DNA of 64,000 nt from Escherichia phage EJP2. This document shows positions 24,331-62,926 of this stretch, piece by piece (the first letter of the stretch is position 1; every line of letters begins with the position of its first letter). Under the pieces are notes generated by a model. It saw only the letters and a program-made list of their open reading frames with translations. It made no database searches and was not told where the DNA came from. The stretch lies in sequence record OQ411014.1; one strand, 5' to 3'. The translations under genes and the position numbers were made by a program.

Positions 24331-24448
24331 TAATCACATCAAGACGAGAACGTGATTGAACAAATGAGAAAAAGGACTTGACTCTACCAACGGATTTTGG
24401 TAAACTAAACAAACTTTACTTATCATCAATAAATGAGGAATCAATACT

Positions 24449-25780: not shown

Positions 25781-25790
25781 TAACTCAAAA

Positions 25791-25817
25791 GGAGGCTGAA
25801 TAATCAGTCTCCTTTTT
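25791..25817 (+). terminator. rho-independent terminator
   Basis: GGAGGCTGA-ATAA-TCAGTCTCC followed by TTTTT. Confidence 0.55.
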
Positions 25818-25840
25818 AAACAAACCGAGGAAATCATATA

Positions 25841-27253
25841 ATGAGTAAATTCAATAATTTGTCTACTAAACTTCCCGATTCAGTTTTGCAAGAATGTAAT
25901 GAACGTATGGTACTAGCTCGTACTTCACTGATGCTCTCTAAACCATTCTTTGGTGTTTTGGCATCTCGTCTTCGCCCAGTACCGAATGATACTTGGTGTC
26001 GTACGATGGCAGTAGATGGCAAACACTTGTACTATAACGTAGAATTCGTTATGGGTTTACAAGACCAAACTAAACGTGCACAATACGAAGAAGCACTAAA
26101 AGAATCAATCGACGATATCAGTACTGAACAAATCAATGACGTACTGAACGGTCTATCTGACCAGAACCTGATTGCTGTACTGTGTCATGAAATTCTTCAC
26201 TGTGCTTATGACCACTTCTTGCGTCGTGGTATGCGTGACCCACAACTGTTCAACAAAGCTGCTGACTATGCAATCAACCAGATTCTAGTTCGTGAAAACA
26301 TTGGTAAGATTCAGTCTTCTTGGTTGTACGACAAGAAATATGACGGAATGACCGCTGAAGAAATCTATGTTCTTCTTGAAGAAGAGAAGAAGAAAGAAGA
26401 GCAAGAAAACGGTGGTGGTGATGGCGACGGTGATGGTTCCGATGACCAAGATGGCGATGGTGACGGAAACAGCAACGGTGGTGGTAAGAAGAAAGGTAAG
26501 AAAGGTAAAGGCGGCACAATTGACCAGCATGACGTACCACAAGAAGGTGATGGTGAAGTAAGTGATGCCAAGCGTCGTGAATATATGGAAGATTTCAAAA
26601 CTGCAATGATGAACGCAGCACGTGCTGGTGGTACTCCAGCAGAAATCGAACGTATGATTGACTCCTTCACTAAACCAAAAATCGACTGGCGTTCTAAACT
26701 ACAACGTACTATGCGTTCTTGCATGAAGTCCGATGTAATTTTCTCTAACCCAAGTCGTCGTTCTTGGAGTACGGGCTTCGGTCACAGTGGTTCTTTCTTT
26801 GGTTCTCCTATCTTCCCAGGACTGAAACCAGATGAAGATATTGATATTGCAATTGCACTTGATGCGTCAGGTTCTATCAGTAATGATATGTTGCGTGACT
26901 TCATCAGTGAAGTGATGGGAATCACCAAACAGTTCAAACAGTTCAAGATTCGTATTATGACTTTTGATACTAAGGTTTATACTGTTCGTGATTATAAAAC
27001 TGGTGAAGAGAAGAAGATTCTAGAATATCCAGTTCATGGAGGTGGTGGTACTGATTTCCAAGCAGTTTGGGATCATATGCGTGATGACAACTACCGTCCA
27101 AAACAACTCGTAATGTTCACTGATGGTGAGCCGTGGGATTCCTGGGGTGACGAAAACTATTGTAAGACTCTTTTCGTAATCCACTCCAACCCTGAAAAGA
27201 TTGCACCATTCGGTGAAACCGTACACTACGAGTACGAAGCGAAGCAACACTAA
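25841..27253 (+). CDS. VWA-domain protein with N-terminal HExxH metallopeptidase-like motif
   Basis: HEILHCAYDH motif; MIDAS LDASGSIS and MFTDGEP in the C-terminal VWA domain; Gly/Asp low-complexity linker. Partner of the upstream ATPase. Confidence 0.75.
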   Translation: MSKFNNLSTKLPDSVLQECNERMVLARTSLMLSKPFFGVLASRLRPVPNDTWCRTMAVDGKHLYYNVEFVMGLQDQTKRAQYEEALKESIDDISTEQINDVLNGLSDQNLIAVLCHEILHCAYDHFLRRGMRDPQLFNKAADYAINQILVRENIGKIQSSWLYDKKYDGMTAEEIYVLLEEEKKKEEQENGGGDGDGDGSDDQDGDGDGNSNGGGKKKGKKGKGGTIDQHDVPQEGDGEVSDAKRREYMEDFKTAMMNAARAGGTPAEIERMIDSFTKPKIDWRSKLQRTMRSCMKSDVIFSNPSRRSWSTGFGHSGSFFGSPIFPGLKPDEDIDIAIALDASGSISNDMLRDFISEVMGITKQFKQFKIRIMTFDTKVYTVRDYKTGEEKKILEYPVHGGGGTDFQAVWDHMRDDNYRPKQLVMFTDGEPWDSWGDENYCKTLFVIHSNPEKIAPFGETVHYEYEAKQH

Positions 27254-27261
27254 TATAAATA

Positions 27262-27298
27262 ATGCGTAAGTTCAGGATGTTCTTACGCATTTTATTTT
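27262..27298 (+). terminator. rho-independent terminator
   Basis: ATGCGTAAG ... CTTACGCAT stem followed by TTTTATTTT. Confidence 0.55.
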
Positions 27299-38664: not shown

Positions 38665-38672
38665 TATTTATA
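38665..38672 (-). promoter_or_regulatory. T4-type late promoter box TATAAATA
   Basis: Exact TATAAATA on the minus strand upstream of the giant fiber gene start (38605). Confidence 0.4.
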
Positions 38673-40814: not shown

Positions 40815-40822
40815 TATAAATA
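40815..40822 (+). promoter_or_regulatory. T4-type late promoter box TATAAATA
   Basis: Exact TATAAATA 33 nt upstream of the ATG at 40855. Confidence 0.45.
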
Positions 40823-43083: not shown

Positions 43084-43111
43084 AATGAAAAAAGGAACCC
43101 GAAGGTTCCTT
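43084..43111 (-). terminator. terminator with UUCG tetraloop
   Basis: Minus-strand reading AAGGAACC-TTCG-GGTTCCTT followed by TTTTCATTT. Confidence 0.5.
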
Positions 43112-43587
43112 TAGAATATATATGGCAAGCTGTTGAAAAATGGCTTGCCATTTTTTATTGATTGCCATAGTGAGTTAAAGTCTGTTATAATATTGGTATT
43201 ATACAAAGTGCTTTTAGCTCCAGGGTGTAGTGGTTTAGGCCAGTTTCCTATCTTGACCCACGAATATCCTGCACTTTCATGGTTAAGTTCTGGTATAAAT
43301 TCACCCTGTACCACAACTATAAATGAATAATATTTAAACTTTCCATTTTTAGTACAGAATACATCGAAAGGGATTATATCTTCAATGTCCGGTACTGAAT
43401 CACCCAACTCTTCTGAGATTTCTCTATGAAGTGCTTGAATAGGAGTTTCAGTACTTTCAATCTTCCCACCAACGAAACCCCAGTTGTTTGCATATGTAGA
43501 AGTGTCTGAACGCAAGTTCAGCATCATCCTTCCAGTATTCTTCGATAAAAATATTGCTCCTACTGCTTCGTTAGTCATCTTTGTCAT
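43111..43587 (-). CDS. Nudix hydrolase
   Basis: Nudix box GKIESTETPIQALHREISEELG (G-x5-E-x7-R-E-U-x-E-E-x-G). Confidence 0.7.
   Translation of the reverse strand: MTKMTNEAVGAIFLSKNTGRMMLNLRSDTSTYANNWGFVGGKIESTETPIQALHREISEELGDSVPDIEDIIPFDVFCTKNGKFKYYSFIVVVQGEFIPELNHESAGYSWVKIGNWPKPLHPGAKSTLYNTNIITDFNSLWQSIKNGKPFFNSLPYIF
43123..43156 (+). terminator. rho-independent terminator
   Basis: TGGCAAGC ... GCTTGCCA stem followed by TTTTTT. Confidence 0.5.
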
Positions 43588-46554: not shown

Positions 46555-48840
46555 ATGAGTCAAACTTTCATTCAAATCTTCACCGATACTGAAAACTTTG
46601 CACAGAGTCTTGGTCATCGTTATATGTCTATCGACCATCTTTCAGTAACCGTGCTACAAATTCCTAGCATCATTGAAGCGTTGAATGCAATGTCTCTCGA
46701 TGCGGAACAAATCCAAGAACGTGTTCACCAGTACTTGAAAAGTGCTAACATTCCAGAGATTCCACAGAGTACGATGGAAGCTATTGGTGAAGATCGTGCG
46801 GCTATGAGCATTCAAATGTCTCGTATCATGGCTGAACTAAGCAAGAAAGCTGTACTGGAACAATTGAAGACTGATGATTATACTATTGCTCCGTACTTTG
46901 TACTTTTTGAATGTTTGTCCTTCCCTAATACTGCAATTGAAGCAGTACTGGAAGAATTAGGAACAACTCGTACTGAAGTGGCTCGTTCTCTTCAGAAACA
47001 TGTTGAACAAGTTGAACCATCAGTAGAACTAACTAAAACTTTCCAAGAACCGACTAAAGAGGGTAAACGAGTGGCACAACAACCACAGTCCAAGTCTAAG
47101 GGTATTGAAGATTACACCACTAACCTGACAGAAAAAGCTCGTAATGGCAATCTTGACCCGATGATTGGTCGTACCAAGGAACTCCAGAACCTAATCGAGA
47201 TTGTTTCTCGTAAGAATAAAAAGAATGCGTGTCTGACTGGTGAACCTGGTGTTGGTAAAACTCAAATCATTGATGGTTTGGCTCAAGCAATCGCTGATGG
47301 GAATGTTCCAGAGCATTTACAAGGTATTGAGATTCTTTCTCTGAACATGGGTGCGTTTACTGCGGGTACTAAGTATCGTGGTGAGTTCGAAGAACGTGTT
47401 GATGATTTCTTGAAAGAATTGAAAACTCGTGATAACGTAATCGTATTCATTGACGAACTACATACTATCATGGGTGCAGGTTCCAACAGTTCTGGTTCTA
47501 TGGATATGAGTAATCTTATCAAACCAGCACTATCAAGTGGTGAAATCCGTGTTATCGGTGCAACTACTTACGAAGAATATCGTAAACACATTGAGAAAGA
47601 TGGTGCACTAGCACGTCGCTTCATGAAAGTTGATATTGTTGAACCTTCTTTCAGTGAAACTCGTGAAATTGTACTCGGCGTTACCAGTACTTATGAGAAG
47701 TTCCATGAAGTTTCTTTCAGTGAAGCAGCAATTGAAGCAGTACTGAACCTGTCTAACAAGTTCATGAAAAACAAGCGTTTCCCTGACAAAGCACTAGATC
47801 TTCTTGATGCAGCAGCGGCAATGAAACGTACTCGTGGTGAAGACGATAATATCGTTCAAGAATCACACATCCAAGAAGTTGTGGCACGCATTGCTAACCT
47901 GGATATTTCTGTGGTAGCATGTAACGAAAGCGAACGCATGTCTAACCTACCAAATGCACTACGTTCTCGTGTATTCGGTCAAGATGATGCAGTTGAAAAA
48001 CTGGTTGATAACGTAATGGTTGCTCGTGCAGGTCTACGTGATAGTGCGTCAGTACAGGGTGCGTTCATTTTCCAAGGGCCGTCCGGTACTGGTAAAACTG
48101 AAATCGCTAAAGCACTTGCTGATGCAATGGGTTCTGAACTAATTCGTTTCGATATGTCAGAGTTTGCTCAAGAGCATACTGTATCCAAACTAATCGGTTC
48201 CCCTCCAGGTTATGTTGGTCACGAATCCGGCAACGGTCTACTGTTAGACAAAGTAGAACAATTCCCGAACTGTGTCCTGCTTCTGGATGAAATTGAAAAG
48301 GCTCACCCTAACATTCTACTAACCTTTCTACAGGTTCTAGATGAAGGTCGTCTAACTGGCTCTCAAGGTAAAACAGTATTCTTCAATAACGTAACTGTTA
48401 TCATGACTACTAACCTAGGTGCTAAACAAGCAGAAGTTCGTGCAATCGGTGGTTCCGGTGGCGACGATGGTATGGACAAAGCACTAAAAGCGTTCCTCCG
48501 TCCAGAGTTTCTAAACCGTATCGACAGTGTTGTGAAATTCAAAGAACTATCTGCTGAGGCAATTGATTCTGTAATCACCAAGTTCATGGCTTCTCTGGAA
48601 GAAACCGTTGCACCTAAAGGTGTTACCGTGAAACTAACTACCGAAGCACGTGCATGGTTGGCTAAGAATGGTGTTCAGGTTGGTATGGGTGCACGTCCAA
48701 TGAAACGTACCATCGAAAAACACATTCGTGTCCCACTAGCTAAAGAAATGCTTTGTGGTTCTCTACAAAATGGTGGTTCAATTACGTTTGACGTGATTGA
48801 TGGAACTCTAGGTGTAAAATCCAAACGTTCTAAAAAATAA
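46555..48840 (+). CDS. clpA: ClpA-like two-ring AAA+ unfoldase
   Basis: Duplicated Clp N-domain. D1 GEPGVGKT ... FIDELHTIMGAG and D2 GPSGTGKTE ... LLLDEIEKAHP. No ClpB middle domain. Colinear with ClpA over about 760 aa. Confidence 0.85.
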   Translation: MSQTFIQIFTDTENFAQSLGHRYMSIDHLSVTVLQIPSIIEALNAMSLDAEQIQERVHQYLKSANIPEIPQSTMEAIGEDRAAMSIQMSRIMAELSKKAVLEQLKTDDYTIAPYFVLFECLSFPNTAIEAVLEELGTTRTEVARSLQKHVEQVEPSVELTKTFQEPTKEGKRVAQQPQSKSKGIEDYTTNLTEKARNGNLDPMIGRTKELQNLIEIVSRKNKKNACLTGEPGVGKTQIIDGLAQAIADGNVPEHLQGIEILSLNMGAFTAGTKYRGEFEERVDDFLKELKTRDNVIVFIDELHTIMGAGSNSSGSMDMSNLIKPALSSGEIRVIGATTYEEYRKHIEKDGALARRFMKVDIVEPSFSETREIVLGVTSTYEKFHEVSFSEAAIEAVLNLSNKFMKNKRFPDKALDLLDAAAAMKRTRGEDDNIVQESHIQEVVARIANLDISVVACNESERMSNLPNALRSRVFGQDDAVEKLVDNVMVARAGLRDSASVQGAFIFQGPSGTGKTEIAKALADAMGSELIRFDMSEFAQEHTVSKLIGSPPGYVGHESGNGLLLDKVEQFPNCVLLLDEIEKAHPNILLTFLQVLDEGRLTGSQGKTVFFNNVTVIMTTNLGAKQAEVRAIGGSGGDDGMDKALKAFLRPEFLNRIDSVVKFKELSAEAIDSVITKFMASLEETVAPKGVTVKLTTEARAWLAKNGVQVGMGARPMKRTIEKHIRVPLAKEMLCGSLQNGGSITFDVIDGTLGVKSKRSKK

Positions 48841-48844
48841 GAAA

Positions 48845-48878
48845 ATAAAAAGGAGCCTTTCGGCTCCTTTTTTTTATT
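48845..48878. terminator. bidirectional terminator between ClpA-like gene and giant gene
   Basis: A-run, GGAGCC-TTTC-GGCTCC, T8 run. Confidence 0.6.
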
Positions 48879-51800
48879 TGATTAATCCAATAAGAATTAC
48901 AGGTGCAATATCCAAACTATCAGAATAAGTACTCAATGGGATTGGTTCATAACCATCACCGTATACTGCAATTTCATTAGTGTTACCTAAATTCAATCCA
49001 GTACTGGTATACGTTACATCCTTTTCGTAATAATTCTGAACAGTACCGTTATAAGCTCGAACAACGAAGTTGTTTTTGCGAACAAGCATTTGTTCTGCAT
49101 TAGATAGGATAATATCGTCAGGTACAACACCAGGCATTGTAGCGATACCATTTTCATAGGTCATGGTGCTTGCCATCTTCGGCTGACTTACGTGAGTGAA
49201 GCTGTCAAACATTGACTTATAAACAACAGTAACAGTACTGTTAGTGTTAATATACACACCATCAACTAGTGGTTTACTATAGATCCAAGAACCATTGTTA
49301 GCAGTAGGGTTAATTTCAGCTACATCGTATTCAAATACTGAAATTTCCAACGCGTCGGTCATTTTAGTACGAACCAATTCACTTAGTACACCTTTACCGT
49401 ACACTGGTAGGTAATATCCATTATCAACCACAGTTCCATCTTCTAGTGTTTGTGTCTCATTAGTACTGTACCATACATCATAGTCATTGGTAGTTAGTTC
49501 TGGTTCATAATTACCACCAATTAAGGAAGTGTCATAGAACACATCATAATCTAGAGCATCGACTCTGTAAGAACGGTTATTAGTATAACGAGTAATTCCA
49601 CCAGCACTAAACTCTGGGTCATTGAAAGATGTAACTCTAACAATGTTGATACTAGTTGGTTTGTTCTGGTTGTAAAGTGATTCATCAGTACTGTTATAAG
49701 TACTAGTGAAAGTTAATCCACCAATAGTTACAGTATTACCAGATACCGAAGTTACTTTAAACAACTTAGGACGATTAGCATCTTTAATTGTTGCTACACT
49801 CAATACAGTTTTCCAAGAACCATCGTTAATAGCGACTGCGTAATCTGAATTGTCTGGGACAAATACAGCTACCGTTTCGCCAACAACGAAATCATTATCA
49901 CCGTCAAGTTCAACAACACCACTTACTGAAGTTACGTTCTTAATACGATATGAATATTGAATTTCATTCTTTTCCAAAATGCTTCTATTCATGTATTCAA
50001 GAGCAACATCATAACGTGGAATACTTACAAGGGCTTCTGAGCGATTATATGGGTTTTGTACGATATAACCTTCAATATTAAAGTTACCTTGATCACGTAA
50101 TTGTGTCTGTACTGAAGTATCAAATCCATATCCATCAACTGTGAATCTTAGCTGTGCCATATCACGTTTAGATGGGTTAAGTTCTGAAATGTCTACAAAT
50201 ACAGGATCGTTAGTACTGTTAGCGACACCAACAACGGAGTTAATAATAGTTTTAGTTTGTGATTCTAGAGCTAAGTTATCGAATGCGTTTTTATCATCAA
50301 AGAATACTTCTTTATTCAAGCCTGACATGATTTGTAAGAAATCACTATATAGTGGGTTCTTATCATCTTCTGGAACGTCATCAAGTGATGGTTGGCTTAG
50401 GCGAACCATATCCCCATCAGTGATATACACTTCTTCCATATATTCTTCTATGCCAACATTCGAAGGAATGCTATAATCTTTTCCTGGAGTAGTTTCACTC
50501 ATTAGGAAAACATATTTCCTAGGCATCAACACTACTGCATAAGCATCAACATCAAGATTCTCTAATACTTTCTCTGCTGCACTATACGGGTCAGTTTCAT
50601 CAGGATTATAAGTCCCTCTAAGTGCTGATAGAACGTGTACTGCATCAGTATAGAAACGATTAGATTCTGGATTATCATCAGTTTCAGGGATTACATATTT
50701 CCATGTATATAAACCGTATTCATATTCCATGTACTCTAGAATCTCAATGTGAGAGAATCCAGGGTTTGCTTCCTTAACTTGATCATAAATCAAATCATAC
50801 ATTGGTTTGCTGTAAGAGATATAACCATAGTTTTCACCATTGCTTGCACTAAATCCAAACGGCAACCTTGTGCTTGGGTTATCACTCAGTACTAGACCTT
50901 TAAATGGACAACCTACTTCAGAACCAATAGTTTCATCAGATTTGGAAGTTGTTAGCTTCAAACGGTTTGAAAGCGTGTTGTACTGAACATAGTTGCGTAC
51001 TTCACTAACCGATTCAGATTTCTCTTCTGCTTCTGCAATTACACGATTAAGTGTAGCTGTAAATTCATCAGATGCTTCAACATCATTAATTAGTGTTGCA
51101 TACATTTGGTCTAAACCATATTTCAAACCACTACTAATATTCATGTTCGGATAGTACTGCGTAATACCGTTCATGATTAATGTTTCCAACTCAGCATTAT
51201 TAATTTCAGGGAAAGTATATGCATAACGCTGGAGCATGTAGTGGGAGCCTTTTACAAGGAAGTCACCAGTATTAGATTGGTATTTCTTGTTCACGTTTTC
51301 TAGTGTTGTTATATCTGCCATATCGGAAGATGGTTTGCACTGGAAGTTGTCAAAGTCAAGAATAACATCAATCTCTTGGAAACGGCGGTTTGGTAGTACG
51401 AAGTTATTTGGTAGTGAGCCTACGATTTCCCACTTCTGACTTACATCGTTGAATTGAGCATATTCGTAATCCCAAATATCTTTTTGTGTTTTAACCCAAG
51501 CACCATCAACATAGATATAACCGTTAGGATCTAAATCGTTTAATAGACCGTTGATTTCATCTTCATCAGATGTCTTCTGCTCTATTTGTGAACGGATTTT
51601 AGTTCTGTATGGTTTCACTTCTTCAAAGTACTGTACGATTTCATTTATTAAATTACCATCAGTAGTTGATCTTTGTTGTAGTGATTGGTCTAGACCAATA
51701 ATATAAATGTAAGAGGTTTTGAATACCCAGTCCACGACTTTCTGCTCAGTGTGTACGTACTTAACCATGTCAAATACTACAGTACTTTGTACAGAGTTGA

Positions 51801-54800
51801 ATGAACCTTTGAGTAGTGCTAATGCTGCACGAACGTTTTTCTCATTATTCGTTAATGCACCATCGCTGTTGTATTGTGAGTAGTTGTTATAAAGAACATT
51901 GTTCAATTGTACAGTGCTCTTCTCACGACCAACTGCTACCCATTGAACTTGACCACGTGATTCAGTTTTTTCATATAATGTCCAGACACCATCGGCATCG
52001 GTAATACGAATCAAATCACCAATCTGGTAGTTTTTAGTGTTAGCAATTTGAATGCTTGTTTCTTCGGTATATTCTGATTCTTCATCAAAACCAACACTAT
52101 ACCAATCAGCATAATCCCAGTAGGTTGTCATATCTAATGAAGTACCAAGCTGATCAATATAGTCAGTTTGCTTAATCATAGTATGTTGACCTTCACCACG
52201 ACTCTCTAGAGTGATAGTTACCGCAGTACCAGAAGTACTTGGGCTATTCATCAAGTGAATGTAACCGTTGTCGTCGTAATGCACAAAGTACACACTAGTA
52301 CGGTTTAGTGGTGCTGGTAATGTACCATTAGTATTAACCAGTACTGCGTCATTCTCTACAAATTTGTTTTCATTTGTGGTGATAACCAATTCGTTGTTAT
52401 AAGTTAGTACTTTAAATCCAACTTCGTTCGGGTTCACAGCGTCAGTCTTCTTAAAGAAGATATCATCCATTACTACAGTGTCAGTTGTCATGTTAATATG
52501 CTTGTACACATTGTTTGCTGAATCAACAAACGTCCTACGAGCTTCTATAACGTCCATAAACCATGTTTTGTTTGCACCTAGACCCAAGTCAGTACTTGGA
52601 TAAGATAACTCAACCACGTTGCCGTTTAGGAGGGTTTCTTGAGACTCCAAAGAGTTCCATAGAGAATTCCAAATAGCTGGGTTGAAGTTGTATTCTTCAC
52701 CTTCTTTACAAAGTTGATACTGTTCATGTTTAATAACATCATCATTATTTTCTTTGTAAGAAACAGTCAATATACTCTTATCATCGTTAATGTCGTGCTG
52801 CATATTAGATAGAATAAAAGAATTCTCATCTACTGGGGAGAACCAAGGAACTCCGAGTACTGAAGGATCAGCAATAATGCGAGCAATCTCATTACAAGAT
52901 TTGGTACGATGCTTAACATGTGGAGTATAGATTGTATCTTTAACCCAGAAGTAATACATTGGCACATAAGTGTTAGTACTAGCATCATATTCAACAAAAT
53001 AAGAATAGTTTTCAGTAACTGCTGTACCGGATGGTAGGTAAGTGGTCTGGCCTTTATTTTGTTTTTGTTGTTCAGTGCAATACTGATCCCAGTTATATGG
53101 TTCTACTGGCGATTTAACCCATTCGTACACATCAATACTACCATGTGGAAGGATTTTACCCCAATTATAACGCTTATATTCTAGAGTCTTATTTACATCG
53201 ACGTTCCCATTAGCATCAAGGATTGGACGAGTATAATCCATGAAGAATGCAGAAGAAGTATCCCACCAAACTTCACCAACTTTATCAGAACCCCAAGCTA
53301 GTAATGTTTCACCATCACTATTGTAGGTTGCTGGGTCACGAGTAGAGGTATATGAAACGTTTGACATTGCCACACCAGGGATAATACCATTGATTGGGTC
53401 ATATGTGTTAATATACATCTCAACAACGTTAGTCATGGAGTTGTAGGTACTTGGGCGGTCGAACAACGAACTGTTAGGTGCTAAGTACTCATATTTTTTC
53501 TGAACGTATGCATCTTTCGCTGCTTTAGTACTGAAACGTGGAACGTATTTGTACATTACAGGTTCTGCACCACTGAAATCAAAATCTACAGTACTGTCGA
53601 ATGCAACAACTATAGTATTTGCAGTAACACCATAGAATTGTGTTTCTTCACGTAGGAAATCAGGCATATAACCGGACTCATCAACGAAGAAGTAAGTATC
53701 ACCATTACTTAGTGTAGATGAAGAACTTAATTCTAGTGTTACTTTCTGTGCTGCGTATTGGTCATCAGTAATAATTGGAGTAATTTTCTTCAAAGTGATA
53801 TTGGTTTTAACAATATCATAGATATTCCAGTTATCATTAGAATCCTGAAGAACCCATACAGACGATGGTAGTGTATTGTAATCGGAAGTATACTTAGAAC
53901 GGTCTTCATAAGCAGTTTGTAGGTCTAGAGTAGTGAATGACACTTCATCTAGAGTTACAGGGCCGATATTTGGCAACTGAATGTTGTCAGATGCACCTTT
54001 ACGCATTGGGAAAGAGAACAAACCATGTGGACGAGTAATCCAACGTGGGTCTACACCTGTTTTACCAAAATAAACGATGTTATTTGCAGTACTGTCCACA
54101 GTTGCATTCTGGTCGAATGTAACCAATTGTGGTTGTTGAGCAAATTCGTTGTTAATTAGTTGGAACTGTAGGTTCTTTTTGCCATATACGTTGCCATATT
54201 CACCGATTTTGAAAGCCCACTCTTGTAGTGCTTTGTAACCTTCGGTATTATAGGTTTTTGATACACGTAGAACACGTTCGAGTACTTGATTAGTACCTTT
54301 GTCACGGATGAAGCCTTTATAGAAATCAACGCGGGCTGGTTCTGATGTGATCATTTCGTTTAAGTAACTTCTGGACTGGTATCCAATTAAATGATTCGCT
54401 AGGGAACGCAATTGAACATCAGATACTGGATTTTCAGTGTCATAATAGTGTCTAAAGTCATCTACTAGTTTTTCAAAGTCAGGTAGTGTGCCAGTTTCGA
54501 GGATAATAAAGCCAGGTGCTTCCAAACGACCATTCCATGAGCCAGTTACATAACCGTACATACGAATCAATTCTTGAATTGAACCATAAGTTGGAATATA
54601 GATGTTATCACCAAAAATAGTTTTATCATCAAACACGATAGCATGTTCATAAGCGATTAAGCTCAAACGAATAAGAGCAATACGCTTGTTGTATTCTTCT
54701 AAACTACGAACAGTGATGATGTTACCGATACGTGCAGTTTCAATTTCATACGGACGAATACCTGTATTATTATCATCTAGTAGAGTCCATAGACCACCAC

Positions 54801-57800
54801 TATATTGTGCAACTGATTCAACAGAACCAAAAGACGCACCGAATTTAACACTTTTAGTACTTGGAGAACAAGAAATATATTCACCACGAGCTAGAGCAGT
54901 CTGACTCCAGTTCAAATAATCCTTCGCAATTTGATTCCAGTTTAGAGTGTTGCCGTTCTCGTCAGTTTCTTCGAAAATAAACCCAACACGTTCCAAATAT
55001 TCACCATAAGCACACAAGAAAGTGTAAACTTCTTGGAAAGAATTCAGTACTGTACCGTATTCAATACTTTGAACTTTATCAGTGTACTCATTGTAATGAA
55101 CTACTGTACGATTACCTTCACGAATAGTAACACGCTTACCATTACGGTTAGGAGTTAAGTATTTGAAGGATGCACCAACTAGATCATAACCAGTAATCTG
55201 ATATCCAGTGCCGTTCCATGTGATATCAACAGCACTCATTGATTCTTCACGGATGGAAGAGCTACGAACTAGACCGATATGTTGGTTTTCTTGAGAAATT
55301 AGACCGAATGTATCAGAATAAAAACTCAATTGGTCTTCTTTACTGAATCCACCAAGTTTATGACCCACATTAATATGTGAACTACGTAAAACGTCACCGT
55401 ACTTAGTAGTAATATCCATTTGTTTGTACTGTAGGTGATCAGTTATGAACATTTGGTATCCTAGGATACGGCTATTGTTCTCATTGTTCACTAGTGTAGT
55501 ACTGTTTAGGTTCAAACGTTGGTTGGTTTCACCAAATAGGAACTGTTCTTTACCACGATAAACTGTTTTAAGAGTACTACCACGAGTATCATAGAAATAG
55601 TTTGCAAACTGTGCTGGTTTAGCACGATATAGTAGTAGAGCTTCATCATATGGGAACATTGCAGTGTTGCGGTAAGTGAATTCAATATCACCCATGTCAC
55701 CATAAGACCACGGTTCTGCACGATGATCAAGGGAACCAGCCACTAAACCTAGAACTTCTGGAGCAATCAGTTCAAATGTGCGAATTTCTTCACCATCTGC
55801 TGTGAAATTACCAGTACCTTTAATAACGAATGGCTGTTTACCAAAACGTTTGTATTTTGCATAAGTTCCTTTGTTCTTACCATATAGAATTGTACCAGTA
55901 CTAGCGTCACCTTTAATACTACCAACATCCCATAGACCACTTGGTACTAATTGGTTGTTTTCATCAATAACTTCAGCTTCATACACGTATACAACTTCAG
56001 TTGGGTCTTCACCAATACGAATTTTGGTTGGTTCATATTCTTGGTTCCACCAAGATGGGCGTTGAGCAAAACCTAACATTTCCCACGGGTGGGTTGCTGG
56101 GCGATATGTACCGAACATGTCACTATAAATTGCTCTCCATGAGCCACGTGCTGGAATATCGGTAACAACGCCATCAACAACATAAGTTGTTCCTTTGTAG
56201 TTCCAAGTTAACCAGTTATTTGCATCATAATCATGTGTACTGTTATCAATACCGTTAGTTGCGATGAAGTTAGTGTAACCACGTAGTAGAAGTGTTTGCT
56301 TCTCGTCACGAGTATAGTCAGTTTCAGTAAAATAAGGAGTCGGGAATAGATCACTCTGAACAAGTTCAGGTACATAATCAATATCTTTGAAATCATTATC
56401 AATACTGTTGAAAATACGGTTTTCTAGTTCGTAAATCACATCATCCATACGACCTACACCATTCAGTACTTTATACGCCTTGGTAATTGTACCAGTATGG
56501 CTTACGTTATAACAACCTAGGTCACGACCAGCATACATATAAGTCGCTTTCTGTGGAGCGTACGCTTTTAGAATACCAATAAACTGTGGAGTCGGTGGAA
56601 TGAAGGCACGAATGTTAGAACTGGAACTACCCATCGCATCAATGAAGAATGGGAAAGTATTATTCTTACCAACGTTAATATTATTAAGAATTGCGTCAAC
56701 AATATTAGATGCACTGTTGGAAGTGAATGCAGATGGATCTTCATTGTACATATTAACCATTTGAGTATTGAATTTGTTCATGAAACGGAAGTATTCAGAT
56801 TGCATAAATTCAATTGCAGCAAATAGGTCAATATTTTCATTCGCTGTGTTAATCATTAGTGGAAGCATAGATGCTTCGTTCTGGATAATCTTAGTACCGA
56901 CAGAGTTATCAACTAGACCTTTAGCAAGACGTTCTTCGTAGTCGTTAAAATCATTTACTGTACCAGTAGTGATGTTACGTTGAATAATTTCTTGGAAATG
57001 TGGTGTATATAGACTTTGATCAATATAAGTGATAAAATCATTATACGGGTTGTTCTGTAGGTTGATTGGAATTTCATAAGAACCCAAGTTAGTATCTGGT
57101 GTTTGTACAGGACTGTAAGTTCTGATTTCAACAATGCTATCATCGGTTAGTTTGATAGAACTATCTAGAGTTATAGATTCAACAAGACCATTTTTATCCA
57201 ATTTAGTACTGAACTTTGTGGTTTCTTCTGTACCAACACGCACATAAAGTACATCTGTGCTTGATGATAGGTTGACACGTTGAGCTAGTTCAAATGTGTG
57301 GTTAAAAAGTTCAGATGGAACGTAGTCATTACCAGCTTCACGATGCCAGTCCATAAAAGTACTGTTATCTGCTTTGTAATATTTGAATGTTGCATCAATA
57401 TCCATTACATAAGCGTACATATTTTCAATTGGATTTTGGAAATTATTCATCTCTTGTACAGTACTGAATACATTGTACATAGAGGTTTTGGTCATAGCAG
57501 GAACTTGACGAACATACTGTTTGGTAAATTCATCGCTACGATCCCAGTCTGATTTTAGATTTACTGAACCGTCAGAACCAATTACGTTATAGTAATACAA
57601 ACCAGAAATTTCAGTAGTTGCTCCAACTTTATCATAATCATAACGAGTACTCTGAATGAAGTTCTCGAAAACATAATAGTTGTAAGAGTTCAATTCAACG
57701 TTAGTGTTATAGATTTTATTGTAGTTGTAGTCAAAGTTAACTTTAAGGCCAAATAGTGGGGAACCTTTAAAAGAACTACTTGGGTAAATTTGAGGATCGT

Positions 57801-58887
57801 TTAGTTTAGTCCCGTTGCGATCATACAATTGGAACAATGGGGTACTGTTAATACCTGATTTAACTTGTGTACGAATCCATGCTGAACCATTCCAGTACAT
57901 AGAAGTGTTTTCATAAACTTGACCAGATTTAATTAGAACAACGTCACCACGCAAAGGTTCACCCGTTGGGCGTAGCTCAGATTCTTCATCTTCATCAAGA
58001 GCAAGACCATATACACGAGTGCCAGCTTCGGTTTGTTTAATGTAAACTTTATAGATTCTGTTATTTTCACCGCTGTTACCGATACTAGTGAATAGAATAC
58101 GGTCACCAGCTTTAAGAATAAAACCATCAACACGAATTTCATCAGAAACTGATTTCTGTACAATATCTTCTGGTTTGATGGAGTCTGATAGGTACGTGAC
58201 TACACCACGGAAAGTAGTTCCGTAATTCATTAGTTCGATGTTTTTGTTATATTCAATGATTGGTGCTTGAGCATGAGTGAAGCGTTCATCTTGAGTCATG
58301 TCATCAGTTAGTACTGTGCCGTCTGGTAATTCTTGACCTACAGTAAACCAATAGTTTTGTAGTGACCATGTGTTACCGTTATCAGCACCACGTTCCATAA
58401 CGATATAATCCGGTGCAATACCAAATTCGTTATTATTGTCCCAAACATAAGAACTGTAGTTCATCATTTTATTTGGGTTGATTGGTGGAGTCCATGAATA
58501 AAACTTACCATCAAATAGGCGTGACTGGTTATCAGTTAAGGAACCATAATGGGACATATATCCTACTAGGTCTTCATAGAACTGCATAGAGCGAACGCTT
58601 GTGTCGGTATTACGAGACACATAAACTGGTGATAGTTGGTAGTCTTGGCGTTGTTGAGAACTTTCTTTGATGAAAATCTTTCCAGCCGCTGACGGAGTAC
58701 CACGGTCACCTATATACCCGTCAACAATTTCTTGTTCGGCAGGGTTGAACCATTGCTGGATTACATCATCACAAAAAGTTTGGATCTGTTCTAGACCTTG
58801 CATCCACTCAGGCAATCTTTTAATGAATAGCTTTTTTTGTACAGCATCTGCCGCTAGGGTTGGCTGGAACTTAAATTCATTCGACAT
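48874..58887 (-). CDS. giant virion protein (about 3337 aa), probable baseplate/fiber network component
   Basis: Single uninterrupted ORF. ATG at 58887 with GGAGAA RBS. TATAAATA late-type box upstream. Adjacent to baseplate genes. Confidence 0.65.
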   Translation of the reverse strand: MSNEFKFQPTLAADAVQKKLFIKRLPEWMQGLEQIQTFCDDVIQQWFNPAEQEIVDGYIGDRGTPSAAGKIFIKESSQQRQDYQLSPVYVSRNTDTSVRSMQFYEDLVGYMSHYGSLTDNQSRLFDGKFYSWTPPINPNKMMNYSSYVWDNNNEFGIAPDYIVMERGADNGNTWSLQNYWFTVGQELPDGTVLTDDMTQDERFTHAQAPIIEYNKNIELMNYGTTFRGVVTYLSDSIKPEDIVQKSVSDEIRVDGFILKAGDRILFTSIGNSGENNRIYKVYIKQTEAGTRVYGLALDEDEESELRPTGEPLRGDVVLIKSGQVYENTSMYWNGSAWIRTQVKSGINSTPLFQLYDRNGTKLNDPQIYPSSSFKGSPLFGLKVNFDYNYNKIYNTNVELNSYNYYVFENFIQSTRYDYDKVGATTEISGLYYYNVIGSDGSVNLKSDWDRSDEFTKQYVRQVPAMTKTSMYNVFSTVQEMNNFQNPIENMYAYVMDIDATFKYYKADNSTFMDWHREAGNDYVPSELFNHTFELAQRVNLSSSTDVLYVRVGTEETTKFSTKLDKNGLVESITLDSSIKLTDDSIVEIRTYSPVQTPDTNLGSYEIPINLQNNPYNDFITYIDQSLYTPHFQEIIQRNITTGTVNDFNDYEERLAKGLVDNSVGTKIIQNEASMLPLMINTANENIDLFAAIEFMQSEYFRFMNKFNTQMVNMYNEDPSAFTSNSASNIVDAILNNINVGKNNTFPFFIDAMGSSSSNIRAFIPPTPQFIGILKAYAPQKATYMYAGRDLGCYNVSHTGTITKAYKVLNGVGRMDDVIYELENRIFNSIDNDFKDIDYVPELVQSDLFPTPYFTETDYTRDEKQTLLLRGYTNFIATNGIDNSTHDYDANNWLTWNYKGTTYVVDGVVTDIPARGSWRAIYSDMFGTYRPATHPWEMLGFAQRPSWWNQEYEPTKIRIGEDPTEVVYVYEAEVIDENNQLVPSGLWDVGSIKGDASTGTILYGKNKGTYAKYKRFGKQPFVIKGTGNFTADGEEIRTFELIAPEVLGLVAGSLDHRAEPWSYGDMGDIEFTYRNTAMFPYDEALLLYRAKPAQFANYFYDTRGSTLKTVYRGKEQFLFGETNQRLNLNSTTLVNNENNSRILGYQMFITDHLQYKQMDITTKYGDVLRSSHINVGHKLGGFSKEDQLSFYSDTFGLISQENQHIGLVRSSSIREESMSAVDITWNGTGYQITGYDLVGASFKYLTPNRNGKRVTIREGNRTVVHYNEYTDKVQSIEYGTVLNSFQEVYTFLCAYGEYLERVGFIFEETDENGNTLNWNQIAKDYLNWSQTALARGEYISCSPSTKSVKFGASFGSVESVAQYSGGLWTLLDDNNTGIRPYEIETARIGNIITVRSLEEYNKRIALIRLSLIAYEHAIVFDDKTIFGDNIYIPTYGSIQELIRMYGYVTGSWNGRLEAPGFIILETGTLPDFEKLVDDFRHYYDTENPVSDVQLRSLANHLIGYQSRSYLNEMITSEPARVDFYKGFIRDKGTNQVLERVLRVSKTYNTEGYKALQEWAFKIGEYGNVYGKKNLQFQLINNEFAQQPQLVTFDQNATVDSTANNIVYFGKTGVDPRWITRPHGLFSFPMRKGASDNIQLPNIGPVTLDEVSFTTLDLQTAYEDRSKYTSDYNTLPSSVWVLQDSNDNWNIYDIVKTNITLKKITPIITDDQYAAQKVTLELSSSSTLSNGDTYFFVDESGYMPDFLREETQFYGVTANTIVVAFDSTVDFDFSGAEPVMYKYVPRFSTKAAKDAYVQKKYEYLAPNSSLFDRPSTYNSMTNVVEMYINTYDPINGIIPGVAMSNVSYTSTRDPATYNSDGETLLAWGSDKVGEVWWDTSSAFFMDYTRPILDANGNVDVNKTLEYKRYNWGKILPHGSIDVYEWVKSPVEPYNWDQYCTEQQKQNKGQTTYLPSGTAVTENYSYFVEYDASTNTYVPMYYFWVKDTIYTPHVKHRTKSCNEIARIIADPSVLGVPWFSPVDENSFILSNMQHDINDDKSILTVSYKENNDDVIKHEQYQLCKEGEEYNFNPAIWNSLWNSLESQETLLNGNVVELSYPSTDLGLGANKTWFMDVIEARRTFVDSANNVYKHINMTTDTVVMDDIFFKKTDAVNPNEVGFKVLTYNNELVITTNENKFVENDAVLVNTNGTLPAPLNRTSVYFVHYDDNGYIHLMNSPSTSGTAVTITLESRGEGQHTMIKQTDYIDQLGTSLDMTTYWDYADWYSVGFDEESEYTEETSIQIANTKNYQIGDLIRITDADGVWTLYEKTESRGQVQWVAVGREKSTVQLNNVLYNNYSQYNSDGALTNNEKNVRAALALLKGSFNSVQSTVVFDMVKYVHTEQKVVDWVFKTSYIYIIGLDQSLQQRSTTDGNLINEIVQYFEEVKPYRTKIRSQIEQKTSDEDEINGLLNDLDPNGYIYVDGAWVKTQKDIWDYEYAQFNDVSQKWEIVGSLPNNFVLPNRRFQEIDVILDFDNFQCKPSSDMADITTLENVNKKYQSNTGDFLVKGSHYMLQRYAYTFPEINNAELETLIMNGITQYYPNMNISSGLKYGLDQMYATLINDVEASDEFTATLNRVIAEAEEKSESVSEVRNYVQYNTLSNRLKLTTSKSDETIGSEVGCPFKGLVLSDNPSTRLPFGFSASNGENYGYISYSKPMYDLIYDQVKEANPGFSHIEILEYMEYEYGLYTWKYVIPETDDNPESNRFYTDAVHVLSALRGTYNPDETDPYSAAEKVLENLDVDAYAVVLMPRKYVFLMSETTPGKDYSIPSNVGIEEYMEEVYITDGDMVRLSQPSLDDVPEDDKNPLYSDFLQIMSGLNKEVFFDDKNAFDNLALESQTKTIINSVVGVANSTNDPVFVDISELNPSKRDMAQLRFTVDGYGFDTSVQTQLRDQGNFNIEGYIVQNPYNRSEALVSIPRYDVALEYMNRSILEKNEIQYSYRIKNVTSVSGVVELDGDNDFVVGETVAVFVPDNSDYAVAINDGSWKTVLSVATIKDANRPKLFKVTSVSGNTVTIGGLTFTSTYNSTDESLYNQNKPTSINIVRVTSFNDPEFSAGGITRYTNNRSYRVDALDYDVFYDTSLIGGNYEPELTTNDYDVWYSTNETQTLEDGTVVDNGYYLPVYGKGVLSELVRTKMTDALEISVFEYDVAEINPTANNGSWIYSKPLVDGVYINTNSTVTVVYKSMFDSFTHVSQPKMASTMTYENGIATMPGVVPDDIILSNAEQMLVRKNNFVVRAYNGTVQNYYEKDVTYTSTGLNLGNTNEIAVYGDGYEPIPLSTYSDSLDIAPVILIGLIK

Positions 58888-58922
58888 TTTATTCTCCATA
58901 AAATTCATTTCTTCATTTGTTT

Positions 58923-58930
58923 TATTTATA
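58923..58930 (-). promoter_or_regulatory. T4-type late promoter box TATAAATA
   Basis: Exact TATAAATA on the minus strand about 36 nt upstream of the giant gene ATG (58887). Confidence 0.4.
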
Positions 58931-58937
58931 AAAGAAA

Positions 58938-58961
58938 TAAAGGCGACCGAAGTCGCCTTTA
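58938..58961 (-). terminator. terminator hairpin with UUCG tetraloop
   Basis: Minus-strand reading AAGGCGAC-TTCG-GTCGCCTT followed by a T-rich run. Confidence 0.5.
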
Positions 58962-58964
58962 ATG

Positions 58965-61900
58965 TTAGTTACCAATATTAATGTTACTCTTAGCCAAAGA
59001 ACTGACTATCTGAACGTTATCTACCGTTGCAGTACTGATAAACAACTGGTCAGGTCTACAAGGTATTTCAAACAATTCACCGAACTTACTATTGGGGTCT
59101 TGTGGAACGATCACAACTGCTGCCACATCAGTAGCCATACTTACTTGAATGTAAGTACTCAATTCTGTGAAGTAGAATGTCTCACCAAAGTCCCAGTTCT
59201 GAACATCGAAGTAATTACGAGTCAACTCGACAACTTTCTGACGAATTTCATCATTACTCAATGTGGTAGTAGGTAGTTTAACGATTTTTAAATCTGCACG
59301 ATAATCTTCATCTGCACTTGCACCAAATAGTTTTAAGAACTCAGCACTATGCCAAATGGAACTATCACTAATTACCATTTTACCCTCAACTTCAGTAAAC
59401 ATGTCTTGTAATTCAACTGATGTTGGTGGTTTAGGGAATTCACCAACTGCACCATTCTTAATCCAGATATTAACTGAATCATAATAGTTAGTAGTTAGAA
59501 CATACATATCAATTAAGTTTGTACGGCTTGGGTCGATACGGTTATCATCTGGAGCATAATGTTTCCATTGGAAATTTATACCGGTACGTGCACCAGTCCT
59601 GACAGTGTATTCATTACTCACATCAACATAACCATAATAAGACAATTTTAGCTTCTCGTCTTTATCATCTTGACCTTCATTCTGTGTTGCACGATAGAAT
59701 GCGAGTTCAGGACTGATAGTACTAGTGTCAGTTGGTAGCATCAGGTTGGAAATGAAATTATCAAGACGTTCGTTGTTGTTACCAACTGTTTGTTGAATGA
59801 AATGATATTCACCATCGTACTGATATGCAATCAAATACCCTGAACCATGATTATACAAATCACTAAAAGAATTGCTTCTTATTTGAACATTTCGCAAGAA
59901 CTCTTTTCTACGATACGCATTCACTTCTGCGTTTGCTTGTGCAGTGGTGTAAGTCCATGATGTATCAAGAATAGTATATGAATCATCATCTTCCAACATA
60001 TCAATAGTAAAATCATCGTTCTCATGGAATATCAACACACCACCATATTTTTGAAGGTCAGTACCGGACAATGTTGGAACTAAGCTACTGTACAAATCTG
60101 GTTCAAGAGGAATACCGTTGCTATCAGTGTTTTTACTAGTTATGATAACACGAGAACCATCAAGATATCCATTCTCTTGTTGAATAGTATCGTAGATTTG
60201 GAAATCAATATTCTGACTGTAACCCAAGTTACTTGTGTAAGATGCGTTATTGTTTAGGATTGCAATCTTGTCAGACTGAACAGTACCAGTACTGATATCA
60301 CTAATCTTCTTGGATGAAACAAAGTAGAATTTAACTTTAGAACCACCAACAAAAATGTACTCAACACCATTACTAACAAATTCCCATGATTCCGCAGTGT
60401 ATTGAACGTTCACTAGAATTGGATATGTAATACCATTATATAGAATTGTTGAACCACTGTATGTTCCTTCAATTGGAATCCATGTATGGGATGATGTGTC
60501 ATAGATGATAACGAAATCAGTCTTCTTATCAATGGCTGCTGCAATTTGTTGAACTTCAGAAGTATTGAACTTAACACGATATGGTTCAATATAAGAATCA
60601 ATAGTCATTGCTGCATCTACTGGTGTAGACAATACATAATAACCATCATCCAGTACTGATACGATAGAAGTCCAAACGGAGTTACCAGTAGTACCTTCCA
60701 TCTTAATCAACGTACCAACTTCATAGGTTTCAATCGGTACACCACTCTGTAGGAATTGACCATAAGTATTGTTCGTATAAGATGAGTTGTGCTCTGGAGT
60801 CCATATTTGGTTAAACGTAACAACGATTGTGTTGCTGTCCCATTGTTGATAATATTGAATAACAGAGTTCTCCCCAAGCAATGGTTGAATATTATCTATC
60901 ACAATACTTTCATTGCTTTTTGGTGATGGTAGAAGAAGAGTGTTACTCTTATTCACGTTCTCTTTATACATTGCACCATCATCACTAAACACATCAGTGT
61001 TTTGATATTTCCCAGTAGGGTCATTGATATCAATGAATCTGGACATACCGCTATAGATACGGTTTAGTGCTTTTCCTTTAATTACTGCGTTACCTAGCAT
61101 TAGTGGTGCGATATTATAATCTTCACCAGTAACGAAACGGTCTTGGGTGTAATACATTTGTGGAGCACGGTCTTTAATCTGTTCGATGGTTTCAGCACTC
61201 TGTGCTAGTCTGGATTCACGTTGTAGTGTGAATTTGACATCCAATGAACTATTTTCATAATCAGTTTGTGACTTAGTACGGTAAACATACTTAACACTTT
61301 TATTCTGAATTGAACTGGTCTTGATAGTGTATGATTTACCATTACTAACACGATACCATACACGGTATGTACCACGAGGAACAGTACCTGAACGTGCATC
61401 TGGATACTTAATTGTGATTTGGTCACGGTCACGAGTAGTTACAGAATAAATTGTTTTCTTTTGACGATCAACTGAGTTATATGCAATACTTTCCATTGAT
61501 GGAACTTGTGTCCATTTGGTTCTTACTATACCATCTTCGTTGATTTCTTGAACCCATACATCAGTTTGGTTTATATTGTCAACGTTCACATCCTGTAAAC
61601 GGTTTTCAATTCGAGTATCATACTGATAATCACTATAAGACAATGAACCTTGTTTAAAGTAAACAAAGAAGCCTGTATCTGGTGAACTAAAACCATTACC
61701 ATCATTTGAATAGATAATGTACTTCTGGTCTTGTGGTTCTGGCATACGTTCAGAAACACCAACAGTACTGATATCTGGGTTAACAACTTCGAACGTTACT
61801 GTTTCGCCGTTGATGTTTGCACTAAATGGCATATTAGGAGCACTCATAGGTAGAGTGTTCATGCGATACAATTGAGTGTTAATACCATTAATCATAATCT

Positions 61901-62426
61901 TCTTAACTGGATTACCAAATTGGTTAGTACTGATGAATGAACTATTCATAACTAGAATAAAGTTCTCGTACCAGTTAGGATCTGCTGGGTCATTCCATTG
62001 AATCGTACGGCCTTTAAGAGATTGGTTGTAGCTGTTTAGTACGTCTTGGTTTGTTTTAATTTCAGTAATTTTGGCTACTGCACGACCTGGATAAGCACGC
62101 TTAGGTGAATACGAAATCATCTTAGCAAGTTTCAGTACTGAAGCTCTGCGTTCTGCGGTATCTAGGAAGTTTTCACGAGTGTTCATGTCCATACGGAATG
62201 CCAAGTTCTGCCCTAGCATACTAATGGTGTCGAGAATGAAGATGAATTCGTCGTTTTCAATCCAGTCGTTGAACTGATCTGGATAAGTGATTCGTAGATA
62301 CTCTACCATACTTTCACGAATCGTATCAAAGTCAAAAGCGGTAAGGTTGATCTTATAAAAACTCTCATACACCTGCTTCCAGTCCTCGGCAGTGTATAAG
62401 TTGGACTGTCTTTTTTGTTGTGCCAT
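58965..62426 (-). CDS. large baseplate wedge-like protein (about 1153 aa)
   Basis: ATG at 62426 with AAGGA RBS. Immediately downstream of the gp25-like gene, as gp6/J-type wedge genes are. Confidence 0.55.
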   Translation of the reverse strand: MAQQKRQSNLYTAEDWKQVYESFYKINLTAFDFDTIRESMVEYLRITYPDQFNDWIENDEFIFILDTISMLGQNLAFRMDMNTRENFLDTAERRASVLKLAKMISYSPKRAYPGRAVAKITEIKTNQDVLNSYNQSLKGRTIQWNDPADPNWYENFILVMNSSFISTNQFGNPVKKIMINGINTQLYRMNTLPMSAPNMPFSANINGETVTFEVVNPDISTVGVSERMPEPQDQKYIIYSNDGNGFSSPDTGFFVYFKQGSLSYSDYQYDTRIENRLQDVNVDNINQTDVWVQEINEDGIVRTKWTQVPSMESIAYNSVDRQKKTIYSVTTRDRDQITIKYPDARSGTVPRGTYRVWYRVSNGKSYTIKTSSIQNKSVKYVYRTKSQTDYENSSLDVKFTLQRESRLAQSAETIEQIKDRAPQMYYTQDRFVTGEDYNIAPLMLGNAVIKGKALNRIYSGMSRFIDINDPTGKYQNTDVFSDDGAMYKENVNKSNTLLLPSPKSNESIVIDNIQPLLGENSVIQYYQQWDSNTIVVTFNQIWTPEHNSSYTNNTYGQFLQSGVPIETYEVGTLIKMEGTTGNSVWTSIVSVLDDGYYVLSTPVDAAMTIDSYIEPYRVKFNTSEVQQIAAAIDKKTDFVIIYDTSSHTWIPIEGTYSGSTILYNGITYPILVNVQYTAESWEFVSNGVEYIFVGGSKVKFYFVSSKKISDISTGTVQSDKIAILNNNASYTSNLGYSQNIDFQIYDTIQQENGYLDGSRVIITSKNTDSNGIPLEPDLYSSLVPTLSGTDLQKYGGVLIFHENDDFTIDMLEDDDSYTILDTSWTYTTAQANAEVNAYRRKEFLRNVQIRSNSFSDLYNHGSGYLIAYQYDGEYHFIQQTVGNNNERLDNFISNLMLPTDTSTISPELAFYRATQNEGQDDKDEKLKLSYYGYVDVSNEYTVRTGARTGINFQWKHYAPDDNRIDPSRTNLIDMYVLTTNYYDSVNIWIKNGAVGEFPKPPTSVELQDMFTEVEGKMVISDSSIWHSAEFLKLFGASADEDYRADLKIVKLPTTTLSNDEIRQKVVELTRNYFDVQNWDFGETFYFTELSTYIQVSMATDVAAVVIVPQDPNSKFGELFEIPCRPDQLFISTATVDNVQIVSSLAKSNINIGN

Positions 62427-62496
62427 AATTAATCCTTGCGTTCTAATATGAGTTATATATCTTACGTTTTCTATGCACACGTATTATGAATTTATT

Positions 62497-62527
62497 TATC
62501 CAAAAAGAAAGACACCCGAAGGTGTCT
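62497..62527 (-). terminator. terminator hairpin with UUCG tetraloop
   Basis: Minus-strand reading AGACACC-TTCG-GGTGTCT followed by TTCTTTTT. Confidence 0.5.
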
Positions 62528-62533
62528 TAGAAA

Positions 62534-62926
62534 TTATGCGGCATTTGAAACAATTGCCATCTTTTCGTTCGCTTCTCTGTCGAACTGTATGAATAGAGTT
62601 TCTTCGGTGTCGAGTTCCACATAGTAAAGGAACAAGTTAACACGAAAACCTCTATCAGTACTTAGGACTTCAACATATTGGAGTGAAACTCTAGGGTCAC
62701 CAGCAACAATGCGACGAGCATCCGCTTCTAATAGATTTTTATTACTATAAATGTCCAATTCAAATAATAAATCCCACCCTACAAATCCATATTGTGCATC
62801 CATAGCACGTTCACCTTTTCTGGTGTTGAAGTGGTTTAATAGATCGCGTTTGACTAGCTCCACATCATAAAGAACTTCAGTTCTTCCCACCTGTGGGGAT
62901 GCAAACCCCTTGTATATCACTGCCAT
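62534..62926 (-). CDS. baseplate wedge protein, gp25/GpW-like
   Basis: NTRKGERAMDAQYGFVGWDLLFE ... RVSLQYVEV pattern as in T4 gp25-family proteins. Confidence 0.7.
   Translation of the reverse strand: MAVIYKGFASPQVGRTEVLYDVELVKRDLLNHFNTRKGERAMDAQYGFVGWDLLFELDIYSNKNLLEADARRIVAGDPRVSLQYVEVLSTDRGFRVNLFLYYVELDTEETLFIQFDREANEKMAIVSNAA

Follow-up and report, generated by a model that had tools for sequence, protein, structure and literature searches.

The DNA analysed here, referred to below as the window, is a stretch of 64,000 nucleotides (nt) from Escherichia phage EJP2 (OQ411014, 349 kb), a published jumbo coliphage that uses lipopolysaccharide as its receptor (PMC10213699). This study concerns two very large open reading frames (ORFs) on its minus strand, which encode proteins of 3337 and 1153 amino acids (aa), and the part that these proteins may play in the phage baseplate. 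By megablast, Erwinia phage Hallingskeid and the GAP32/121Q/Munch group come closest, with 72-79% nucleotide identity in a phage collection that evidently does not hold EJP2 itself. EJP2 is a Rak2-like jumbo myophage, and both ORFs lie in its baseplate module, where they follow a gp25-like gene:

62534-62926, minus strand: gp25-like gene for a baseplate wedge protein of 130 aa, which opens the gp25 / gp6-like / giant trio (PF04965 GPW_gp25, E 1.3e-7; phrog_43, E 1.3e-11)
58965-62426, minus strand: gene for a putative enlarged gp6/gpJ-type baseplate wedge protein of the Pfam DUF8360 family, 1153 aa
48874-58887, minus strand: gene for a giant virion protein, 3337 aa from M8, with a full-length match to phrog_10938

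In the ORF table, the longest version of the giant-gene frame runs over 48874-58908(-), with 3344 codons from the first ATG, and that of the second frame over 58965-62480(-), with 1171 codons from a GTG. Proteins of 3337 and 1153 aa are nevertheless the better gene models. The giant gene is likely to start at M8 (codon 8, nt 58887), where the ATG has a GGAG 8 nt upstream and coincides with the start of the PHROG profile, with the N-termini of the homologues and with the GenBank EJP2 protein. The ATG of the 1153-aa gene at nt 62426 is preceded by an AAGGA Shine-Dalgarno sequence, and the close homologues of its product all measure 1151-1158 aa. The sizes given in the initial annotation, which had been made from the sequence alone, match these two ATGs, and the gp25-like neighbour that it had placed before them is the PF04965 gene immediately upstream. 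Residues of the giant protein are numbered below along the 3344-codon frame.

By exact look-up, the two products are identical (100% over 3337 and 1153 aa, respectively) to the deposited EJP2 proteins WEM33293.1 and WEM33294.1. Their computed masses are 380.9 kDa for the giant protein and 131.7 kDa for the gp6-like protein, and both are acidic, the giant protein having a pI of 4.6. The initial annotation had asked whether resequencing would split the giant ORF. Logan, ENA and NCBI contribute 14 further sequences to the 90%-identity cluster of the protein, and since all 14 are unsplit and full length, at 3337 or 3344 aa each, the ORF is not an assembly artefact. Nor can an open frame of 3344 codons be explained by chance at a G+C content of 38%, and the protein aligns end to end with dozens of homologues at 45-74% identity.

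The smaller protein matches phrog_10646 from end to end, and within it residues 26-126 are recognised by phrog_219, which represents gp6-type wedge proteins in general and is annotated as 'baseplate wedge subunit' (E 3.3e-18). Residues 30-115 align by hhalign to residues 23-107 of T4 gp6 (E 0.011), and BLASTP against T4 gp6 gives E 0.049. A profile built from 25 diverse homologues matches BplA of phage P1 over aa 84-123 (E 3.6e-4) through the motif E-F-x-TA-RR-S, and a weak second island in that match corresponds to the motif RAP..Y..R.V..DY, which is also the site of the TIGR02243 match. The same two elements occur in the same order in T4 gp6, P2 gpJ and P1 BplA, in which an N-terminal E-x-F-x-TA-x-RR-S helix motif precedes RAP..Y....R.V...DY. 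Like the genes of T4 gp6-type proteins, the gene is adjacent to and downstream of gp25. TIGR02243 itself reaches only 21 bits, below its curated cut-off of 155.8, and a Pfam search at E up to 0.1 returned no Baseplate_J domain (PF04865). Unlike Baseplate_J-type proteins, the 1153-aa protein falls in a Pfam family of its own, PF27647 (DUF8360); it has at least 1753 homologues, and nearly all of those among the matches listed carry this domain. It is also 1.75 times longer than T4 gp6. On the evidence of its N-terminal third, we accept it as a predicted enlarged wedge protein of the gp6/gpJ type, and we regard the remaining ~700 residues as family-specific. By analogy with T4, P2 and the type VI secretion system, it would be present in 12 copies and, with gp25, build the inner wedge ring. 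The deposited name of WEM33294.1, 'hypothetical protein', is not supported by these searches.

The order of genes in the window is gp5-like hub (3' end), T4-type lysozyme, gp25, gp6-like and giant. The same order, with a large gp6-like gene, was found in Hallingskeid, in GAP32 and on two contigs, one from TARA Oceans and one of 570 kb, and the gp25 / gp6-like / giant succession holds at every locus inspected. Corresponding gene orders have been published for PA5oct (gp133-gp128; PMC7318152) and RsoM2USA (ORF364-361; PMC8504454). The homologue on the marine TARA contig is a protein of 5755 aa, encoded at positions 10001-27268 of that contig. Both this contig and the 570-kb contig keep the gp25 and DUF8360 neighbours, and the module therefore reaches genomes of megaphage size.

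By profile comparison, the giant protein belongs over its full length to phrog_10938, a family already present in PHROGs. The match scores 4810 bits and places residues 8-3334 of 3344 on profile positions 1-3315 of 3324. This family, the 'largest ORF' of Rak2-like phages, includes GAP32_230, CBB_236, phAPEC6 gp245, 121Q ORF 582, PA5oct gp128 and RsoM2USA ORF361, with which the EJP2 protein shares the full-length profile match, the neighbours and the mass. The largest ORF has served as a landmark for orienting Rak2-like genomes since 2017 (PMC5259590). Among 5.8 billion proteins searched, 190 relatives with lengths of 2434-5755 aa were found, and the nearest 54 are covered completely. By tblastn, the family is present in all Rak2-like phages, with 62-78% identity over the core, and in more distant phages, at 39% in a Vibrio phage and at 24-28% in the PA5oct group, Atu_ph07, SCTP-2, RsoM2USA, RAS14 and XacN1. 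It also occurs in metagenomic phages. The chain is divided into two parts that differ in reach:

51529-58908, minus strand: aa 1-2460, which hold the conserved core (about aa 60-2460), kept in all members according to block mapping and the conservation profile
48877-51528, minus strand: aa 2461-3344, a fast-diverging, clade-specific C-terminal region of ~880 aa, with alignments confined to the Rak2-like clade

The continuity of the core is interrupted at variable insertion hot-spots, around aa 160, 480-600, 960-1080, 1680-1800 and 2160-2280. In distant homologues, modules of the CBM_5_12, FG-GAP, YHYH and T7 tail-fibre N-domain types are located either in these hot-spots or in the C-terminal part. 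An exhaustive HMMER search with the C-terminal part against 1.84 billion representative proteins returned only members of the giant family or fragments of them. The EJP2 protein is 54-78% identical to those of other Rak2-like phages in GenBank. The same region accumulates changes among near-identical strains. In the two most divergent EJP2-like strains, P0255 and P0256 (~99% identical), 27 of 37 and 26 of 35 substitutions fall in aa 2533-3179, where an even spread would give ~10. In both strains, nine substitutions lie within the 24 residues of aa 2607-2630 (about 51019-51090 of the window, minus strand). This cluster looks like a small recombination or hypervariable patch, and it may be one recombination patch rather than many independent events.

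AlphaFold2 models were made for aa 1-1200 and aa 1201-2400 from 23-sequence alignments. The first is compact and confident, with mixed alpha/beta domains (predicted local distance difference test, pLDDT, 86.6; predicted template modelling score, pTM, 0.81). The second has confident domains in an uncertain mutual arrangement (pLDDT 77.7, pTM 0.45). A fold search with the two models, which together cover aa 1-2400, found no solved structure resembling the giant protein; the searches used whole 1200-residue models, for which the tools do not report the matched query residues. Best matches for the first model were the collagen XV trimerisation domain and the ~90-residue N-terminal anchors of T7 gp17-type fibres, podophage tailspikes and CBA120 TSP4, the best Foldseek E-value being 0.063, for TSP4 residues 1-250. 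The scores for these anchors (gp10-like XD domains) are below a safe threshold, and the rest of the giant chain has no counterpart in such proteins. The second model matched generic beta-barrels, oligonucleotide/oligosaccharide-binding folds and immunoglobulin- or pilin-like domains. An extended repetitive fibre architecture (coiled coil, beta-helix, collagen-like or triple-beta-helix) was not found: the aa 1-1200 model is compact, and self-BLASTP detects no internal repeats, in agreement with the initial annotation, which had seen none by eye. One segment stands out in the second model:

54229-54648, minus strand: aa 1421-1560, a conserved but low-confidence segment (pLDDT 32-59; 40-60% identity per 10-aa block)

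This segment has the lowest pLDDT in the 2400 modelled residues, between flanking domains at 80-93, yet it is among the most conserved parts of the protein in distant homologues and carries a dense run of invariant residues. The simplest explanation suggested by the models is a fold that depends on a partner, and the segment would then be a candidate site of attachment to the wedge core.

The giant gene lies immediately after the gp6-like gene, as gene 7 does in T4, and gp7 membership was therefore tested directly. A hidden Markov model of the giant family gave negative scores against T4 gp5-gp12 and gp53, with E 0.45 for gp7, and hhalign of the family against T4 gp7 gave a probability of 0.4%. 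A gp7 profile built from seven Straboviridae sequences (31-100% identity) was aligned by hhalign with three giant-family profiles, with probabilities of 0.2-0.3%. The comparison of the giant profile with the gp6-like profile revealed no gp6-like module within the giant protein, and the models of aa 1-2400 show no fold similarity to gp7 or TssG, whether in the core-bundle helix, the trifurcation unit or the C-terminal gp6-like domain. More generally, the giant protein has no match in Pfam, NCBIfam or, by phmmer, the PDB (E up to 0.1-10), and a 51-sequence profile of its family matched none of all PDB sequences. With T4 gp7, TssG, P2 gpI and Mu gp48 it shares the position of X in a gp25-gp6-X order, immediately behind gp6, and with T4 gp7-type proteins it shares a large size relative to the other wedge parts and an expected linking of the wedge core to the periphery. 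It is 3.2 times longer than T4 gp7 and shows no sequence, profile or fold similarity to that protein. The distribution of conservation differs as well, since the most conserved part of gp7, with invariant columns, is its C-terminal third, whereas in the giant protein the N-terminal and central parts are the most conserved. An assignment of gp7 by exclusion also failed, because the module also contains two other unassigned virion proteins, phrog_11190 (735 aa) and phrog_12050 (243 aa).

Presence in the virion has been published for relatives, and not reported for EJP2 itself. CBB_236 was detected in purified virions by mass spectrometry with 21 peptides and 7.7% coverage, and it lies beside CBB_237, annotated as 'baseplate wedge' and likewise detected in the virion (PMC5259590). 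In phAPEC6, mass spectrometry of virions detected gp245 (381.88 kDa, 17 peptides) and also the neighbouring gp244 (131.18 kDa) (PMC7247149). The two phAPEC6 masses agree with the 380.9 and 131.7 kDa computed for EJP2. We equate the CBB and phAPEC6 products with the EJP2 proteins on the basis of mass, adjacency and the match to the named CBB homologue.

Taken with the conserved gene order, these data lead us to favour, with somewhat more belief than doubt, a non-fibrous, peripheral baseplate scaffold that takes the place of gp7 on a core of gp25 and two gp6-like subunits. The slot after gp6 is that of gp7, gpI or TssG in other contractile systems. The giant protein would be anchored on the gp25-(gp6)2 core of the wedge, with probably one copy to each wedge. 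Its conserved multi-domain core of ~2460 aa would build the outer body of the baseplate, and the C-terminal 880 aa and the hot-spots, where distant relatives have carbohydrate-binding modules, would be exposed on the outside and directed at the fibres or at the cell surface. Several points weigh against the scaffold. The coverage by mass spectrometry in relatives is low (about 7.6%) and yields no copy number. We found no published imaging that locates the giant protein and no paper that assigns it a location or function; the papers on phiKp24, the RaK2 adsorption complex and phAPEC6 and a 2026 review of jumbo phages make no such assignment, and no solved baseplate of any Rak2-like or PA5oct-like phage was found in the literature. 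The structural models cover aa 1-2400 of the 3344. Finally, either phrog_11190 or phrog_12050 could be the true equivalent of gp7.

The belief that we place in a peripheral scaffold includes a smaller share for one particular version of it, namely genuine but extremely distant homology to T4 gp7, TssG and P2 gpI, with the conserved core-bundle and trifurcation element buried in the giant chain, perhaps in aa 1421-1560 or in a helix near aa 2120. We consider such unrecognisable homology unlikely. The contractile systems studied are all reported to pair (gp6)2 with a gp7-like protein (Taylor et al. 2016), and the giant gene directly follows gp6 at every locus seen. T4 gp7 can be traced by tblastn only within Straboviridae, so the gp7 family diverges fast. 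The highly conserved segment at aa 1421-1560, which AlphaFold2 cannot fold alone, would suit such a homologue, as would the top, though non-significant, hhalign pairing, in which giant aa ~2121-2190 are set against residues 721-790, where gp7 is most conserved. Against it stand the negative profile and fold comparisons and the different distribution of conservation.

The initial annotation had proposed an unusually elaborate baseplate or fibre network. An elaborate baseplate is a reasonable deduction, but the fibre network is disfavoured, given the compact model of aa 1-1200 (pTM 0.81) and the presence of separate fibre genes in the window. A tail fibre or receptor-binding protein, hanging from the baseplate as a homotrimer, accordingly seems rather improbable to us. 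The modelled N-terminal part is globular and multi-domain rather than an extended chain, the protein lacks internal repeats, and conservation of ~2460 of its residues in phages that infect Enterobacteria, Vibrio, Pseudomonas, Agrobacterium and Xanthomonas is unlike that of receptor-binding proteins. Moreover, the window has a separate tail-fibre gene, for 1869 aa, together with other fibre-like genes, and the fibres of RaK2 consist of other proteins (PMC10253068). It is the combination of compact N-terminal model, broadly conserved core and separate fibre genes that speaks against this role. We attach little weight to a virion component located elsewhere, in the head, an inner body or the tail hairs, or as an ejected protein, whose place in the baseplate operon would be incidental. 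In PHROGs, the family bears the generic label 'virion structural protein' and is placed in 'head and packaging', a category that is the default for unassigned structural proteins. Unassigned hairs do decorate the tail and capsid of phAPEC6 and CBB (PMC7247149, PMC5259590), but the family is also present in relatives for which no hairs are reported, such as RaK2 and PA5oct, and the adjacency of gp25, gp6-like and giant genes from coliphages to marine and 570-kb contigs argues for functional coupling. An enzymatic role is very improbable indeed. Its sole basis is the product name deposited in GenBank for WEM33293.1, 'D-alanyl-D-alanine carboxypeptidase'. That label we reject: Pfam, NCBIfam and PDB-sequence searches, peptidase families included, gave no match at E up to 0.1-10, so the label is unsupported, the fold matches include no peptidase, and the EJP2 paper is silent on such an activity. 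The name looks like an annotation artefact, and it could propagate.

A bolder version of the peripheral scaffold, doubtful as a whole, would go further. In it, throughout a very large clade of jumbo and mega phages, a single polypeptide of 2400-5750 aa, made of folds unseen in the PDB, replaces the entire multi-protein periphery of the T4 baseplate (the roles of gp7, gp8, gp10 and gp11), docks on gp25-(gp6)2 through aa 1421-1560, which would fold only in the complex, and displays lineage-specific adhesin modules (CBM5/12, FG-GAP, YHYH or an EJP2-type C-terminus) at fixed insertion points. If this were true, the baseplate body itself would be a determinant of host range.

Both genes were already known: identical sequences have been deposited, the family is in PHROGs, and the virion presence of relatives has been published. 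What is new is the negative test of gp7 membership for the giant family, the 2400 confidently modelled residues without a PDB counterpart, the anatomy of core, hot-spots and variable tail across a family that reaches 5755 aa, and the conserved segment at aa 1421-1560 that AlphaFold cannot fold alone. These additions make the giant protein a sensible structural target rather than a surprising finding, and little is gained from it as the result of a genome scan. Because the family has no structural precedent, it is a clear target for cryo-electron microscopy. If the proposed peripheral role is right, the family would be the main unassigned mass of the baseplate, six copies amounting to about 2.3 MDa, in a widespread lineage of jumbo phages, among them therapeutic candidates against E. 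coli, Klebsiella, Salmonella and Pseudomonas. The variable C-terminus and the insertion points would then be obvious places for determinants of host range.

Putative transcription signals flank the genes of the trio:

62509-62528: terminator-like hairpin after the gp25-like gene (pattern match)
58938-58961, minus strand: terminator-like G+C hairpin with a T-run, between the gp6-like and giant genes (10-bp stem with 5 GC pairs, T-rich tail; consensus match only)
58923-58930, minus strand: TATAAATA, which is the consensus of T4 late promoters and lies 36 nt ahead of the likely giant-gene start (pattern match)
48847-48872, both strands: bidirectional terminator-like hairpin, common to the giant gene and a convergent ClpA/B-like gene (11-bp stem, T-runs on both strands)

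The hairpins and TATAAATA are pattern matches and are not functional evidence. Relatives encode, according to their annotation, a late sigma factor of the gp55 type. The consensus occurs four times in the window against 5.9 copies expected, which is not above chance, so that only its placement speaks for a promoter. All four copies, at 27254-27261(+), 38665-38672(-), 40815-40822(+) and 58923-58930(-), are intergenic, and three of them lie 33-60 nt upstream of the start of a gene on the same strand; for the other the distance is about 216 nt. One copy precedes the 1869-aa tail-fibre gene at 32996-38605(-), which phrog_4549 matches in seven separate stretches. These suggest internal repeats, and the gene is a fibre candidate separate from the giant protein.

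The gene convergent with the giant gene, at 46555-48840(+), encodes a 761-aa double AAA+ protein of the ClpA/ClpB type (AAA_2, AAA, ClpB_D2-small and AAA_lid_9) within the tail and baseplate block. It has the same position in GAP32 (GAP32_229) and in Hallingskeid, and does not adjoin the giant gene on the distant TARA and 570-kb contigs. One thought is that very large virion proteins have in it an unfoldase or chaperone of their own. Other non-structural genes stand among the structural ones in the window. A NUDIX hydrolase gene at 43111-43587(-) adjoins a gp15-like tail-completion gene, and an AAA ATPase (443 aa) and an HNH-endonuclease-like protein (470 aa) are encoded between virion genes at 24449-27253(+).

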